This document shows positions 32,102 through 36,723 of a DNA stretch of 64,000 nt, one piece after another. The stretch comes from Edaphobacter sp. Lineage in GTDB: Bacteria > Acidobacteriota > Terriglobia > Terriglobales > Acidobacteriaceae. Position numbers and translations under genes: made by a program. Below the pieces are notes generated by a model. It had not been told where the DNA came from, made no database searches, and was given only the letters and a program-made list of their open reading frames with translations. The DNA lies in assembly GCA_035317185.1 (NCBI GenBank), contig DATHHN010000048.1, positions 27,194 to 91,193 on the forward strand. Reading direction: 5' to 3'. Position 1 is the stretch's first letter. Every line of letters begins with the position of its first letter.

Positions 32102-32377
32102 ATGTCACACGTAAATCGTGAAAAAGCGAAGCTGCTGAATCGAATGAAACGGATTCGCGGGCAGATGGAATCGGTCGAGCGAAAGCTTGCAGCCGAGGAC
32201 CATGACTGCGCCGAGGTTTTGATGCTGTTGGCTGCGGTGAGGGGCGGTATCAACGGCTTGATGGCGGAGGTTCTGGAGGACCATATCCGGCTGCATCTTT
32301 TGCAGGACGGTCACGCTCCACTTACACCGGATCTGGGAGAAGATCTGATCGATCTGGTACGGGCGTATCTGAAATGA
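32102..32377 (+). CDS. rcnR: RcnR-type Ni/Co-sensing repressor (CsoR/RcnR family)
   Basis: LLNRMKRIRGQ, and the His3-Cys36-His61-His65 fingerprint counted in the translation. Confidence 0.88.
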   Translation: MSHVNREKAKLLNRMKRIRGQMESVERKLAAEDHDCAEVLMLLAAVRGGINGLMAEVLEDHIRLHLLQDGHAPLTPDLGEDLIDLVRAYLK

Positions 32378-32811: not shown

Positions 32812-35067
32812 TTGTTGAGTCGATCCGTTCCTGTATTTGCGTTGTTTTGTGCAACGGCGAGTTTGCTGGCTCAACAGCAGAGCTTCGGCGGCTCGCTGAG
32901 CGGAAGGCTTACTGACCTTTCAGGCGTGAATGTAGCCGAGGCTACCGTAACGGTGGTGCAGGATGGAACGGAACGATCGTTTTCGACGGCCAGCGATCGA
33001 AATGGAAGGTTCCAGTTTGCCGATCTTCCGGACGGGCGCTATGAGGTGACGGTGCACCGCGCCAACTTCGCCGATGCAAGGCGAGTTGTGACTGTGCAGG
33101 GGCATGAGGCAGCGGTAGTATCTGTTCAACTTGGAAAAGCAGAAAGTGCGGCGCAGCCTAGTCAACGGCTCATCTTCAATACTCCACGATCAAACACTGC
33201 GACGATGCCACTGCTCGACGAGCCTCGGCCTGTGGGTGAGGGGCAGGCGATTGAGATGCCCGATATGCTCAACGGCCTGACGGCGATCCAGGAATTTCGG
33301 GTGATGAACGATGCGTATCGTGCAGGGGTTTCTATGGGCATCCCGGGCGCGAATGCGGCGATGGTTCATGGTGAAGTGTATGGTTTGGCGGGAAACTCGC
33401 TGATGGGTTTGAACGGAATGCTGACCGCTGTTCAGGTTCCGTTGGCGCAGTATGGCGGATCGGTGGGAGGAGCGAGCCAACGCGGAGGGAGCTCGTATTT
33501 TGTGGGTTTCGACCAGAACTCGATGGATCGAAACAAGGTACTCGCGGGTAGTGTTGGCCAGCCTCTTTTACAAAAGGATTCTGCGGGGCACTCGCTGGTG
33601 TCCAATCAGCTTCTGGCGCGAATCGACCATCAGATTGGACAGCGGGATACGGTGAGTGCACGCTATAGCCGTTCGGCTATGAGTAATCCGTTGCAGGGTG
33701 CCGGGGCGCAGGCAGCGGGCCTCAACATACAGCAGCAGACTGCGACGGTGGACAACACGGTTGCGATTTCGCCGCGGACGATCAATGCGACGCAGGCGCA
33801 GTATGTCGATGGAAGTGTGCGGGTTCCGGCGGGGGCGCCGGCACAGGGCATCCAGGCGGATGTGGCAACGGCACGTCGGTACAGGATCTACGAGGCTGCG
33901 GATAATCTTTATCATCAGATGGGCCGCCAGACTATGCAGGTGGGTGGGGATTTCTTCTTCAACCAGATGAGCGTTGCGTTTCTGGAGGGAGCCTCCGGGA
34001 ACGCGAGTTTTGGCCAATCATCGCGAAACGTGGGTTTCTACGCCCAGAATCAGTGGAAGATGAGACCCGACTTTGTGGTGACGGCAGGGGCTCGGTACGA
34101 CCTTGAGTCGTTGAAAAATGTGCATGCCGATACGAATAATGTCGCACCCCAGGTCGGTTTTGCGTGGGCGCCGGGAGGGTCGAGGAGCACGGTGATTCGG
34201 GGCGGCTTCGGTCTGATGTATGAGCAGCTTCCGCTGCCAACGATCTCGGGCGCGGCGGATTCCATGGGAGCGGTCAACCTGGCGCGGTCGGGAAACTTTA
34301 CGGCTGGCCGCAGCGGCATACCGATCGCGTCGCTGGCCAGTTTCAGTGTGGTCGATCCGATGATTCAAAACTCGTATGCGGAGGAGGCAAATGTGGAGTT
34401 CGAGCAGCAACTCGGTGCGCGAACGACGATTTCGGCAAGCTTGCAGCATGTGAGTGGGCGGCAGATTGAATCCCCTGGCTATAACGCCGCGGCGCTTTGT
34501 GCGGTGGCAAGTGGATGCAGTGCGGGGAATGAATTCTACGGAGGAACGCGGTATACGTCCGGATCGAACTCCTCGTATGACGGCCTCTCGGTCTCGTTCG
34601 TTCAGAGGCCGGTGCGCTGGGGCGATTACAAGGTTTCGTATACGTATGCCACCGCGCAGAGCTCAGGCGCGCAGGAGTACAACGCCATTGTAGGAGACCA
34701 GATGCGGCGGGTGTCTTTTACTGGCGCGCTCCACACTTCGCCGGATGCGGCGACGAATCTGTGGCAGAATCTGAGCCATAACTTTGCGTTGACGGGATAT
34801 GGCGACTTTACAAGGCGCAACGAGATGCCCGGGCTGGACTTTATTCATTTCAATGCTCAGTTGGTCAAGAGTTTTCAGCTAGGGACGCGAGCTCGCCTGG
34901 AAGCAGTGGCGCAATCGTTCAACATGCTGGAACATCGAAACTATTCGATCGATAAAGCAAGGGAAGAGCTGGGGGAGTATGGAGTGAACATCCTCTCGTC
35001 GTACGAACGCGTGTCGGCGCTTGCAACGCCGAATGGAAGCCAGGTCGGGTTGCGGCTGAAGTTCTAA
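32812..35067 (+). CDS. Compact TonB-dependent-receptor-like protein with an N-terminal carboxypeptidase-regulatory-like domain
   Basis: Signal peptide; GRLTDLSG..AEATVTV..GRFQFADLPDGRYEV; YAQNQWK..VTAGARYD, APQVGFAWAP, TVIRGGFG; ends GLRLKF; SD GGAGG. Confidence 0.8.
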   Translation: MLSRSVPVFALFCATASLLAQQQSFGGSLSGRLTDLSGVNVAEATVTVVQDGTERSFSTASDRNGRFQFADLPDGRYEVTVHRANFADARRVVTVQGHEAAVVSVQLGKAESAAQPSQRLIFNTPRSNTATMPLLDEPRPVGEGQAIEMPDMLNGLTAIQEFRVMNDAYRAGVSMGIPGANAAMVHGEVYGLAGNSLMGLNGMLTAVQVPLAQYGGSVGGASQRGGSSYFVGFDQNSMDRNKVLAGSVGQPLLQKDSAGHSLVSNQLLARIDHQIGQRDTVSARYSRSAMSNPLQGAGAQAAGLNIQQQTATVDNTVAISPRTINATQAQYVDGSVRVPAGAPAQGIQADVATARRYRIYEAADNLYHQMGRQTMQVGGDFFFNQMSVAFLEGASGNASFGQSSRNVGFYAQNQWKMRPDFVVTAGARYDLESLKNVHADTNNVAPQVGFAWAPGGSRSTVIRGGFGLMYEQLPLPTISGAADSMGAVNLARSGNFTAGRSGIPIASLASFSVVDPMIQNSYAEEANVEFEQQLGARTTISASLQHVSGRQIESPGYNAAALCAVASGCSAGNEFYGGTRYTSGSNSSYDGLSVSFVQRPVRWGDYKVSYTYATAQSSGAQEYNAIVGDQMRRVSFTGALHTSPDAATNLWQNLSHNFALTGYGDFTRRNEMPGLDFIHFNAQLVKSFQLGTRARLEAVAQSFNMLEHRNYSIDKAREELGEYGVNILSSYERVSALATPNGSQVGLRLKF

Positions 35068-35173
35068 GGCAGAGCTTGCATGAGCGGGAGTGTCAGAGTA
35101 ATCTGCGAGTACACGGGAAAGGAGGATGATCCAGCCTATGAAAATTGACAGTAACAGTTGCATCGATAAGCGT

Positions 35174-35340
35174 GAGGTGACTGAGGCTTAGAGCGTCCCT
35201 TGCTCTAGACCTGGCGGTCTTTTCAGAAGTAATGAAGATCCTTGCCGAGGCTCGTTCCGAGTGGGGACGCCTCAGGTCAATCTCAACAGTTCACCGCCAG
35301 ACGGCTCGTTGCTCCTCGGAGCGCGAGCCGTTTGCGTTTA
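35174..35340 (+). ncRNA. Candidate structured RNA of unknown class
   Basis: TTGACA at 35145-35150; extensive self-complementarity in two alternative folds; a 3' hairpin followed by TTTGCGTTT. Identified by hand, with no family match recognised. Confidence 0.5.
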
Positions 35341-35368
35341 ATGCGGACGACCGCTTTAGAATGGGGCT

Positions 35369-36139
35369 ATGAAACCCCTCGTCATTGCCGGAAGAGCCTT
35401 TCAGTCGCGACTCATTGTTGGAACCGGAAAGTACAAGGACGGTCCGGAGACCCAGGCAGCCATTGAAGCGTCGGGTGCCGAGATGGTTACAGTGGCGGTG
35501 CGCCGAGTGAATCTCGACCGCTCGAGTGAATCGCTGCTGGACTATATCGATCCGCAACGCTATTTCCTGCTGCCGAATACAGCGGGCTGTTATACGGCAG
35601 ACGAGGCGATTCGAGCGGCTCGATTGGGGCGCGAGGTGGGGTTGTCGGACTGGGTGAAGATCGAAGTGATTGGCGACCAGCAGACTCTGTATCCCGATGT
35701 TCAGGCAACGCTTGAGGCGACGCGAGTGTTGGTGAAGGAAGGCTTTACTGTTCTTCCGTATACCTCTGATGACATTGTATTTGCAAAGCGATTGATTGAC
35801 GTTGGGGCGGCGGCGGTGATGCCGCTGGGGGCTCCCATTGGAAGCGGGCTGGGGCTGCAGAACACGGCGAATCTTAGGATTCTGCGAGAGCTGATTACGG
35901 AGGTTCCGCTGATTGTGGACGCTGGTGTTGGGACGGCGTCGGATGCGGCTGTGGCGATGGAGCTTGGTTTCGACGCGGTGCTGATGAACACGGCGATTGC
36001 GCAGGCGAAGGATCCGCTGCTGATGGCCGAAGCGATGCAGCACGCGGTACTGGCGGGACGGCAGGCGTTCCTGGCGGGCCGGATGCCGAGGAAGCTGTAT
36101 GCAACGGCCAGTTCGCCGCTTGAGGGAATCTCTCGATAA
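35369..36139 (+). CDS. thiG: Thiazole synthase
   Basis: [60 protein letters not shown]. Confidence 0.98.
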
Positions 36140-36195: not shown

Positions 36196-36723
36196 ATGCA
36201 GTACACTTCGCCCATGCGGGTCTTTGGTGTCGATTGCGGGACGGAGTTCACCGGGTACGGTGTGGTCGAGGTGGACTGCGAGGCGCGGATGCCGCGACTG
36301 GTTCATCTTGCTGCGGGAACGATTCGGCTGAACAAGAAGGAGAAGACGCCGCAGCGGCTGGCGCAGGTGTATGCGGAGTTAACAGGTTTGATGGCGCTGC
36401 ATCAGCCTGAGGTCGTGGCGATTGAAGAGGTTTTTTTCTCGGCCAATGCGAAGTCCGCGCTAAAGCTGGGACAGGTTCGTGGGGTGGCAATGCTTGCTGC
36501 GGCGAGTTGCGGGCTTCCCGTAGTGGAGTATGCGCCGCTATCGATCAAGAGCGCGGTCGTAGGGTACGGGCTGGCGGCGAAGGAGCAGGTGCAGTTCATG
36601 GTGACGCGGCTGCTGGAGCTCGATCGGGCGCCGGATTCGGCTGATGCTGCTGACGCACTCGCTATTGCCATTTGCCATATCCATACGTCGCAGACACTTC
36701 TGCAGCAGGGTTCCGTACGATGA
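36196..36723 (+). CDS. ruvC: Holliday junction resolvase RuvC
   Basis: VFGVDCG..TGYGVV, VAIEEVF, LKLGQVRG, VVGYGLAAKEQV, DAADALAIAICH. Confidence 0.97.
   Translation: MQYTSPMRVFGVDCGTEFTGYGVVEVDCEARMPRLVHLAAGTIRLNKKEKTPQRLAQVYAELTGLMALHQPEVVAIEEVFFSANAKSALKLGQVRGVAMLAAASCGLPVVEYAPLSIKSAVVGYGLAAKEQVQFMVTRLLELDRAPDSADAADALAIAICHIHTSQTLLQQGSVR

Follow-up and report, generated by a model that had tools for sequence, protein, structure and literature searches.

A small RNA gene of Acidobacteriaceae with a 16S rRNA-complementary leader, a 17-codon reading frame and two competing predicted folds

The DNA upstream of the thiazole-synthase gene thiG in Edaphobacter sp. carries a small gene for a structured RNA that belongs to a previously undescribed family. 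It lies in a stretch of 64,000 nucleotides (nt; assembly GCA_035317185.1, contig DATHHN010000048.1, positions 27,194 to 91,193), here called the window, in whose numbering all coordinates are given unless another locus is named. The element is a stand-alone small-RNA or small-mRNA gene of about 230 nt, found in Acidobacteriaceae and related soil Acidobacteria, and is closed by a constitutive intrinsic terminator. We are confident that it is an independently expressed, structured RNA with a conserved short open reading frame (sORF) and a leader complementary to the 3' end of 16S ribosomal RNA (rRNA), and moderately confident that it acts as a switch toggled by the ribosome. Taken together, the reading towards which we lean, by a modest degree, is that of a ribosome-engaged, translation-sensitive RNA gene with two states, and not that of a switch for thiG. 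A preliminary description, made from the letters of the window, had proposed, as one of two options, an independent structured RNA at this place, and this part stands; the leader and the 17-codon sORF had been overlooked.

The comparison draws on ThiG relatives fetched from 80 Acidobacteriaceae genomes, among them Edaphobacter, Granulicella, Terriglobus and Paracidobacterium. In 69 of the 80 loci nhmmer finds the element, always as one copy upstream of thiG and on its strand, and the intergenic DNA of these loci is conserved at 70–94% identity. A metagenome scan with an invariant 14-mer adds about 20 true homologues, ten of which form a divergent group located away from thiG. Counts for promoter, leader and sORF are based on 83 complete homologues, and folds of minimum free energy (MFE) on 81 distinct domains, each folded separately; column pairing rates refer to an alignment named A1, for which 500 shuffles and slid controls were used, and the support for individual helices comes from 66–83 homologues.

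The 5' edge of conservation is sharp, falling at 35110/35111 (U-ACACGGGAAAGGAGG...), and conservation extends from there to the terminator. Two promoter boxes are found at a fixed distance in all 83 homologues (Table 1); they indicate a conserved promoter of the sigma-70 type that is the element's own. In the divergent group a perfect TTGAC and TAnnnT are separated by a spacer of 17 nt. In the window, each hexamer matches the consensus at only three of six positions, which is why a simple consensus scan overlooked the promoter. The TTGACA at 35145–35150, proposed in the preliminary description as promoter and start of the unit, is instead made up of sORF codons 3–5; the conserved promoter is situated 40–70 nt further upstream, and the conserved start, at about 35111, precedes this hexamer by 34 nt.

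Expression of the element as a separate unit can be seen in RNA data. Its 31-mers are present in many soil and litter metatranscriptomes, and the RNA contigs from X25 and X29 that lie on the window cover 35112–35319 only; one low-depth contig from X23 extends to 35102. The depths, being those of assembler contigs, are approximate, and exact transcript ends are not readable from them. In X25, 136 contigs representing many sequence variants add up to a depth that peaks at 34,563 (35176–91); the depth is 2–9 on thiG and 0 on the upstream TonB-type gene. The same pattern is observed in X10, X12, X23, X26 and X29, and by these rough contig depths the element exceeds thiG more than 1000-fold. The independent small RNA that had been suggested as one of two options is thus borne out by its own promoter, a covarying terminator, RNA contigs that end short of the flanking genes, and genomic contexts that are free of thiG.

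In reverse complement, the leader corresponds to the conserved 16S rRNA 3' end GGCUGGAUCACCUCCUUUCU (the last 20 nt), plus one extra base. This rRNA end is also the target of the familiar 1525R/1541R primer. The predicted duplex comprises 20 base pairs (bp) and a 1-nt bulge and has an energy of −37.3 kcal/mol, the partner being the general bacterial consensus and not the 16S sequence of the host genome. With the 15-nt single-stranded tail of 16S rRNA alone, the value is −22.5 kcal/mol, and for a plain AGGAGG it is −9.2 kcal/mol. The longest uninterrupted complementarity in the window is 10 nt, the total of 20 nt being divided by the 1-nt bulge. Across the 83 homologues the bulge base varies (A, U or G), and the common substitutions A>G and C>U (UGAUCC to UGGUCC or UGGUUC) retain wobble pairs. 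The sole homologue without a bulge base is that of locus L069 (2579–2610 there), where the leader GGAAGGAGGUGGUCCAGC contains the uninterrupted stretch GGAGGUGGUCCAGC with one G·U pair; the existence of a bulge-free leader argues that pairing to 16S rRNA may be the property that is conserved. Across 200 loci (about 1.1 Mb fetched), GAAAGGAGGNTGATCC is confined to this element.

The putative start codon at 35138 stands 2 nt beyond the last 16S-complementary base, and in all 83 homologues an ATG follows GGAGG at a distance of 12 ± 1 nt. The sORF has 15–20 codons, with 17 codons in 49 of the 83, and the gaps in its alignment measure 3, 6, 9 or 12 nt, all multiples of three. There are 68 distinct peptides, every one of which ends in REVTEA followed by the stop codon; Asp4 and Ser7 are also conserved, the serine being encoded by AGY as well as UCN codons. 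In the variable codons, entropy is flat over the three positions (0.87/0.90/0.92), and the REVTEA codons are invariant at their wobble positions too. Because of these two properties, selection looks as if it acts on translation, on the length of the track and on the last codons as RNA sequence, and less on the core of the peptide. A missing thiS gene, or an extension of the sORF by readthrough or frameshifting, was considered and rejected, since downstream of the sORF all frames are closed across the homologues. A likeness of its EVT motif to PqqA was also discarded, there being neither a Tyr nor a pqq context.

The 3' part of the RNA has a conserved fold. The stretch 35145–35345 folds at −82.9 kcal/mol (z = −4.0), with none of 200 dinucleotide shuffles as good, and the per-sequence MFE folds nearly always give a four-way junction of the helices P1 to P4. 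P1 is formed in 72 of the 81 folds; in the divergent group it is remodelled compatibly, with GACUGAGGCC paired to GGCCUUAGUC. P2 appears in 79 of 81 folds and is 94.5% paired on A1, with the compensated variants AAGGC/GCCUU, GAGCC/GGCUC and GGGC/GCCC. For P3, the corresponding figure is 93.3%, with three pairs changed on both sides (GGUG/CACC, for example), and the length of its tip varies as the end of a helix would. P4 was assessed per sequence because its columns are misaligned in A1 (39% paired); its compensated variants include GUCC/GGAC, CAUCC/GGAUG, CCCAC/GUGG and AUCGCG/CGCGAU. In total, 18 pairs of P1, P2, P3 and the terminator change on both sides, and each measure for these four helices is above all 500 shuffles and all slid controls.

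The preliminary description had been built on a set of strings that, TTGACA included, all lie in the window where it had placed them: GCGUCCC (35194–35200) and GGGACGC (35264–35270), the small hairpins AGACC-UGGC-GGUCU (35207–35220), UUCA...UGAA (35222–35236) and CCU-UGCCG-AGG (35240–35250), CGUUCC (35253–58) with GGGACG (35264–69), CUGGCGGU (35211–18), ACCGCCAG (35293–300), and GGCUCGUU, which occurs at 35249 and again at 35303. From these, two folds had been drawn by hand. The closing helix of fold A is P1 (98.5% paired) and survives, as do its GCGUCC/GGACGC extension (88.5% paired, four of five pairs changed on both sides) and the CGUUCC/GGGACG hairpin, which is P4. The small hairpins inside fold A are paired in 63–65% of cases; the family instead pairs CCU-GGCG with UGCC-G-AGG (93%). 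The long-range pairing of CUGGCGGU with ACCGCCAG on which fold B depended is 76% paired, shows zero covariation and is no better than shuffles (307/500). The compensatory changes among homologues that had been named as a check are present, in the form of the 18 pairs mentioned above.

In one clade (L022, L023, L025, L031, L032, L033, L070) the base of P3 has undergone a concerted four-base change, at the equivalents of 35212–13 and 35246/35248, by which CCUGGCG...CGCCGAGG becomes CCCAGCG...CGCAGCGG. Two Watson–Crick pairs are thereby replaced by A·A and a shifted C-G plus a bulge, which suggests a structured internal loop and not a plain helix at this place. A resemblance of the P3 tip to 5S rRNA (CCUGGCGG...UCAGAAGU) was dismissed as chance, the tip being variable.

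The P2 loop X1 is complementary to X', the 3' arm of P4, in every lineage despite divergent sequence; the X1/X' combinations include GCGUCCAUAG/UAUGGACG, CCGCCUUCGG/CGAGGGCG, GCACCCUUUG/GAAGGGUG, GCGUCCACGC/CGUGGACG and CAUCGCGCC/AGCGCGAU. The mean energy of this duplex is −9.85 kcal/mol, compared with −6.58 ± 0.20 kcal/mol when X' is swapped between types. On A1 the X1–X' helix (P1b) is 88.5% paired, and four of its five pairs are changed on both sides. It usually has 7–8 bp within the 8-nt window scored, and about 10 bp by eye in the L036 group. Two folds can thus be distinguished: state A, in which P1 is lengthened by X1–X' to a helix of about 15–17 bp, and state B, the four-way junction with P4 (X2–X'). 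X1–X' extends into the P2 stem, and X' serves as the 3' arm of P4 as well, so that the two are alternatives and not parts of a pseudoknot; an H-type pseudoknot of P2 with X1–X' is unlikely for the same overlap, and in the L036 group it would use both arms of P2. Constrained folding gives state B as the MFE for 71 of the 81 sequences; the gap between the states averages 2.3 ± 2.5 kcal/mol and is within 3 kcal/mol in 49 of 81. The term "bistable", already applied to this RNA in the preliminary description, is therefore apt: GGGACG has two possible partners, GCGUCC just past the stop codon and the CGUUCC nearby, and both pairings are kept by compensatory changes.

Table 1. Features of the small RNA gene in the window (P1 to P4, helices; X1, X2 and X', segments that compete for pairing; SD, Shine–Dalgarno sequence).
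Feature	Coordinates	Strand	Description
−35 box	35076..35081	+	TTGCAT; TTG at −35/−36 from ACACGGG in 75/83 homologues
−10 box	35099..35104	+	TAATCT (TAnnnT); at −12 from ACACGGG in 76/83, within −12 to −14 in 83/83
Whole small RNA	35111..35340	+	predicted start ~35110–35113, to terminator U-tract; sharp 5' conservation edge
16S-complementary leader	35116..35136	+	GGAAAGGAGG (35116–25, core SD 35120–25), bulged A 35126, UGAUCCAGCC (35127–36)
Putative sORF, 17 codons	35138..35191	+	MKIDSNSCIDKREVTEA; stop UAG 35189–91; frame in 83/83 homologues
P1, 5' strand	35178..35186	+	UGACUGAGG; sORF codons 14–17; 98.5% paired on A1
P1, 3' strand	35270..35279	+	CCUC-A-GGUCA; A35274 bulged
P2 hairpin	35189..35207	+	UAGAGC/GCUCUA; holds the sORF stop codon; loop X1 GCGUCCCUU, 35194–35200
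P3	35210..35250	+	CCU-GGCG (35210–16) with UGCC-G-AGG (35243–50); variable tip 35217–42
P4 hairpin	35253..35269	+	X2 CGUUCC (35253–58) with X' GGGACG (35264–69); in 79/81 folds
Conserved pyrimidine-rich linker	35280..35296	+	AUCUCAACAGUUCACCG; CAAUCYCAACAG...ACCG; kept in main and divergent groups
Intrinsic terminator	35298..35340	+	stem 35298–35334, U-tract to 35340 (UUUGCGUUU)

Further blocks that resemble an SD or its complement are distributed over the RNA. The invariant end of the sORF (35174–35186) contains two internal SD-like motifs, GAGGUGA and GAGG, and the P1 3' strand and the linker bear the anti-SD-like CCUC and UCUC. Because of these repeats the RNA can pair in several registers. 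One example is the full-length MFE fold of the window sequence, where the SD region and the linker are joined in the pairing GAGG-a-UGAUC/GGUCA-a-UCUC. As an internal anti-SD formed between the GGUCA-a-UCUC tail and the leader, this arrangement was left aside, since it is not conserved in the divergent group.

The proposed mode of action combines these elements. The leader would pair with essentially the entire single-stranded 16S 3' tail, as an extended SD of 10 + 10 nt around a 1-nt bulge, and so would capture the 30S subunit very tightly at a start codon placed right after the duplex. The 15–20 codons of the sORF would then be read by the ribosome. At the same time, the predicted 5' strands of P1 and P2 consist of the final four sense codons together with the stop codon, and X', beside P1, may pair either with X1 to give state A or with X2 to give P4 and state B. 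A ribosome positioned at the UAG would cover the P2 5' arm and X1, with P1 already melted; as P1, P2 and X1 would all be opened in this way, its passage would reset or toggle the fold. Translation and either fold of the domain would be mutually exclusive, and the passing ribosome would leave X' to X2. Candidates for the output are the conserved linker (35280–96), the peptide or the captured ribosome itself.

Several points weigh against this picture. Translation, 30S binding and switching are predictions from sequence and modelled folds. Neither the window nor any fetched locus contains an rRNA gene, and the complementarity of the leader is that to the general bacterial consensus. P1 is nearly invariant and is supported by conservation and by its remodelling in the divergent group, not by covariation within the main group. 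As 71 of 81 sequences have state B as their MFE, state A could be a folding intermediate and not a functional state. The flat codon entropy means that the classic signature of amino-acid selection is absent, and RNA pairing alone could explain the frozen wobble positions of REVTEA. Finally, in Acidobacteriaceae the element is always on the thiG strand and leaves no room for a thiG promoter, so that some effect in cis through read-through is possible.

The relation to thiG bears on one alternative to the favoured reading, namely a cis-acting thiG leader, either a riboswitch or a leader-peptide attenuator, in which the sORF and/or a ligand-binding junction sets read-through of the terminator. 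The proximity is considerable: in 59 of the 69 Acidobacteriaceae loci the element ends 18–235 nt before thiG on the same strand, and the distance from terminator to thiG ATG is 28 nt in the window (35341–35368) and 18–33 nt in many relatives. A gap of 28 nt is too short to hold a promoter, and expression of thiG therefore probably relies on read-through of the strong terminator that follows the very strong promoter of the element. Even where unrelated genes have been inserted between the element and thiG, in ten Acidobacteriaceae loci, nearly all of them are co-oriented, and high abundance is often seen for short leader transcripts. No thiamine gene is found among these inserted or the neighbouring genes, however, and the association with thiamine genes is not consistent across relatives. 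The ten divergent homologues lie away from thiG, next to genes for DNA-alkylation repair, a DinB-like protein and an aldo-keto reductase, and several have a convergent gene downstream; L104 and L082 carry the element upstream of ruvC, with thiG absent. Because the divergent homologues lack thiG and the elements of L104 and L082 precede ruvC, the ancestral synteny is with the ruvC region, and the adjacency to thiG is a lineage-specific one. The terminator hairpin, predicted as such in the preliminary description, is 97% paired with six pairs changed on both sides, and at a mean of −31 kcal/mol it has no conserved competitor: the best upstream duplex with its 3' arm reaches −18.1 kcal/mol, against −18.2 kcal/mol for a shuffled arm. 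An antiterminator formed through the duplicated GGCUCGUU, as had been envisaged, was rejected, the duplication being a peculiarity of the window (an 8-nt repeat is present in only 5 of the 83 homologues); one formed through CUGGCGGU/ACCGCCAG was rejected as well, that pairing being no better than shuffles. The models for the thiamine pyrophosphate (TPP) and hydroxymethylpyrimidine pyrophosphate (HMP-PP; thiS) riboswitches remain unmatched in the window and 17 related loci, in agreement with the earlier remark that the TPP consensus is lacking. The suggestion of a new switch upstream of thiG is accordingly abandoned on account of the unrelated contexts of distant homologues and the missing antiterminator. 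We regard a cis-acting thiG leader as distinctly unlikely; probably transcribed by read-through, thiG would be a passenger and not evidence of regulation.

Other interpretations accept an independent RNA and differ in what they take to be its active part. An ordinary mRNA for a functional 17-residue peptide, with a 3' structure that stabilises it and a strong SD that maximises yield, would explain the very high transcript abundance, the preservation of frame, start and stop in 83 of 83 homologues, and the conservation of Asp4, Ser7 (through both AGY and UCN codons) and REVTEA. It is nevertheless rather unlikely, given that the variable core has no excess of third-position change and the invariant REVTEA wobble positions point to constraint at the RNA level; moreover, a junction with compensated competition between X1, X2 and X' exceeds the needs of a stabilising hairpin, and 16S complementarity of such length lowered translation in the case of rreB (PMC5711450). 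That the RNA acts in trans, by base pairing or by sponging a protein through its single-stranded tail or junction with the sORF as a secondary feature, is unlikely: the stand-alone gene, strong terminator and U-tail, an abundance typical of housekeeping small RNAs and a linker (CAAUCYCAACAG...ACCG) invariant in both groups all fit, but no target has been identified, the best-conserved parts are the leader and the overlap of sORF and P1 and not the tail, and the strict conservation of frame and length would need a separate explanation. The idea of a 6S-like RNA, one that binds RNA polymerase by mimicry of an open promoter, can practically be dismissed. Its appeal rested on a size of about 200 nt, a similar abundance and the rod-like appearance of the hand-drawn fold B; it is already refuted at the level of structure, as the consensus is a four-way junction in place of a rod bearing a central bubble, conservation is missing for the pairing that would close the rod, an SD and sORF are foreign to 6S RNA, and no 6S match is obtained at E ≤ 10.

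Database searches agree with a new family. At gathering score, Rfam 15 gives no family for the whole 64-kb window, nor for 17 related loci. With the threshold relaxed to E ≤ 10, the sole match in 35000–35450 is Atu_L6 (E = 4.7), a chance hit of terminator-like character; Acido-1 and Acido-Lenti-1 (RF01686, RF01687), both of which are in Rfam (PMC2864571), have no match there at this threshold. ARAGORN finds no tRNA or tmRNA in 34900–35500. No acidobacterial small RNA or leader of such a kind was found in literature searches, and the GC-IGR motif-discovery papers make no mention of Acidobacteria.

Among known systems, the closest in architecture are the rre genes. The rreB gene of Bradyrhizobium specifies a small mRNA of 165 nt that has a promoter of the RpoD type and a terminator, 17 nt of perfect complementarity to the 16S 3' end, which reach into the start codon GTG, and an sORF of 14 codons (Hahn et al., RNA Biol 2017; PMC5711450). 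It binds 30S subunits strongly and is translated weakly; its half-life rises when the start codon is removed, and complementarity of this length lowered translation instead of raising it (PMC5711450). The rreR gene of Rhodobacterales has 18 codons, RreB and RreR are mutually unrelated, and the function of rre genes is unknown (PMC5711450). A BLASTN survey for at least 16 uninterrupted complementary nt including the canonical SD gave candidates in Alphaproteobacteria only (PMC5711450); rreB and rreR themselves belong to Bradyrhizobiaceae and Rhodobacterales. The acidobacterial RNA resembles rreB and rreR as a short stand-alone transcript with a sigma-70-type promoter and a terminator, in a leader complementary to essentially the whole single-stranded 16S 3' tail beside the start codon, and in an sORF of similar size (14–18 codons there, 15–20 here) with clade-restricted conservation. 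Unlike those genes, it has 10 + 10 nt around a variable 1-nt bulge in place of 16–17 uninterrupted nt, and an ATG 2 nt past the duplex where rreB has a GTG inside it. It also adds a larger conserved 3' four-way junction with two competing pairings and an overlapping sORF end, and is extremely abundant in soil metatranscriptomes. It comes from another phylum, with no established sequence relationship. Since it shares the architecture, but falls short of the uninterrupted complementarity asked for in the survey, starts with ATG and adds the two-state junction, it is treated here as a variation on the rre kind and not as a demonstrated member.

Looser parallels exist with other RNAs. Dual-function small RNAs (SgrS/SgrT, SR1/SR1P, RNAIII/hld, Spot 42/SpfP, AzuCR) likewise join a tiny protein and conserved structure in an independent RNA; here, the structured domain is overlapped by the reading frame, which competes with it, the SD reaches far beyond the usual length, and no base-pairing target is known. 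In leader-peptide systems (trpL, mgtL of the mgtA leader, tnaC), translation of a short frame remodels alternative pairings downstream, and conservation concerns the fact that the frame is translated and how long it is, not the peptide. The present RNA has the overlap that is expected of an attenuator, codons 14–17 and the stop of the putative sORF forming the P1 and P2 5' strands; it differs in having many lineages without a regulated downstream gene, a terminator without a conserved antiterminator in competition, and no run of regulatory codons. The TPP (RF00059) and HMP-PP (thiS motif) riboswitches share a position immediately upstream of the thiazole-synthase gene in Acidobacteriaceae, whereas the present element is unmatched in Rfam, its link to thiG is lineage-specific synteny, and its closing helix is the coding end of the sORF. 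With 6S RNA only size and abundance are shared; the four-way junction, the SD and sORF and the lack of an Rfam match set it apart.

A bolder version of the ribosome-engaged reading treats the RNA as an abundant factor and not as a message: idle 30S subunits would be caught by pairing with their whole 16S 3' tail, and ribosome passage over the 17-codon track of fixed length would flip the junction. We hold this to be a rather doubtful extension. The hibernation protein RMF acts at the anti-SD; if the extension were true, the element would be an RNA counterpart of RMF by which slow-growing Acidobacteria of the soil would sense, buffer or park their capacity for translation, and it would open a first mechanistic approach to the rre genes, which are unexplained. 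Among soil bacteria, Acidobacteria rank with the most abundant and are difficult to work with. In several soil metatranscriptomes this RNA belongs to their most abundant transcripts apart from the ribosomal ones, although both annotation and Rfam lack it. The class of small mRNAs whose SD is over-long (rreB/rreR) is hereby extended to a second phylum, and the end of a reading frame that doubles as a strand of a two-state junction offers a system for asking how strong SD:anti-SD pairing and ribosome passage regulate. A tempting mis-annotation is also corrected, as a new thiamine riboswitch is ruled out here.

The genes flanking the element in the window were assigned by Pfam to an outer-membrane barrel/carboxypeptidase-regulatory-domain protein (32812–35067), ThiG (35369–36139) and RuvC (36196–36723). 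In ten ThiG loci (L035, L037, L039, L040, L042, L050, L057, L068, L076, L077) the element was not found within 3 kb upstream of thiG; these include that of Acidipila rosea, and an Rfam riboswitch is likewise absent from them. The metagenomic copy in L104 (3416–3640 when oriented) keeps promoter, leader, sORF and the start of P2, after which no P1 3' strand or CAAUCCCAACAG linker is recognisable; this copy may be degenerate or rearranged. Where genes are inserted before thiG, L048 (2235–2974) and L061 (2200–2978) have a Phd/YefM-like gene followed by a PIN/VapC-like one on the same strand, a pair resembling a type II toxin–antitoxin system. Other inserts are AhpD-like and Rrf2 genes (L059), a glyoxalase-like gene (L073) and a gene for a protein of 615–642 amino acids (L052, L058). 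Further upstream in the window, a 91-amino-acid reading frame at 32102–32377 (MSHVNREKAKLLNRMKRIRGQ...) may encode a metal-sensing repressor, to judge from a likeness to the CsoR/RcnR type.

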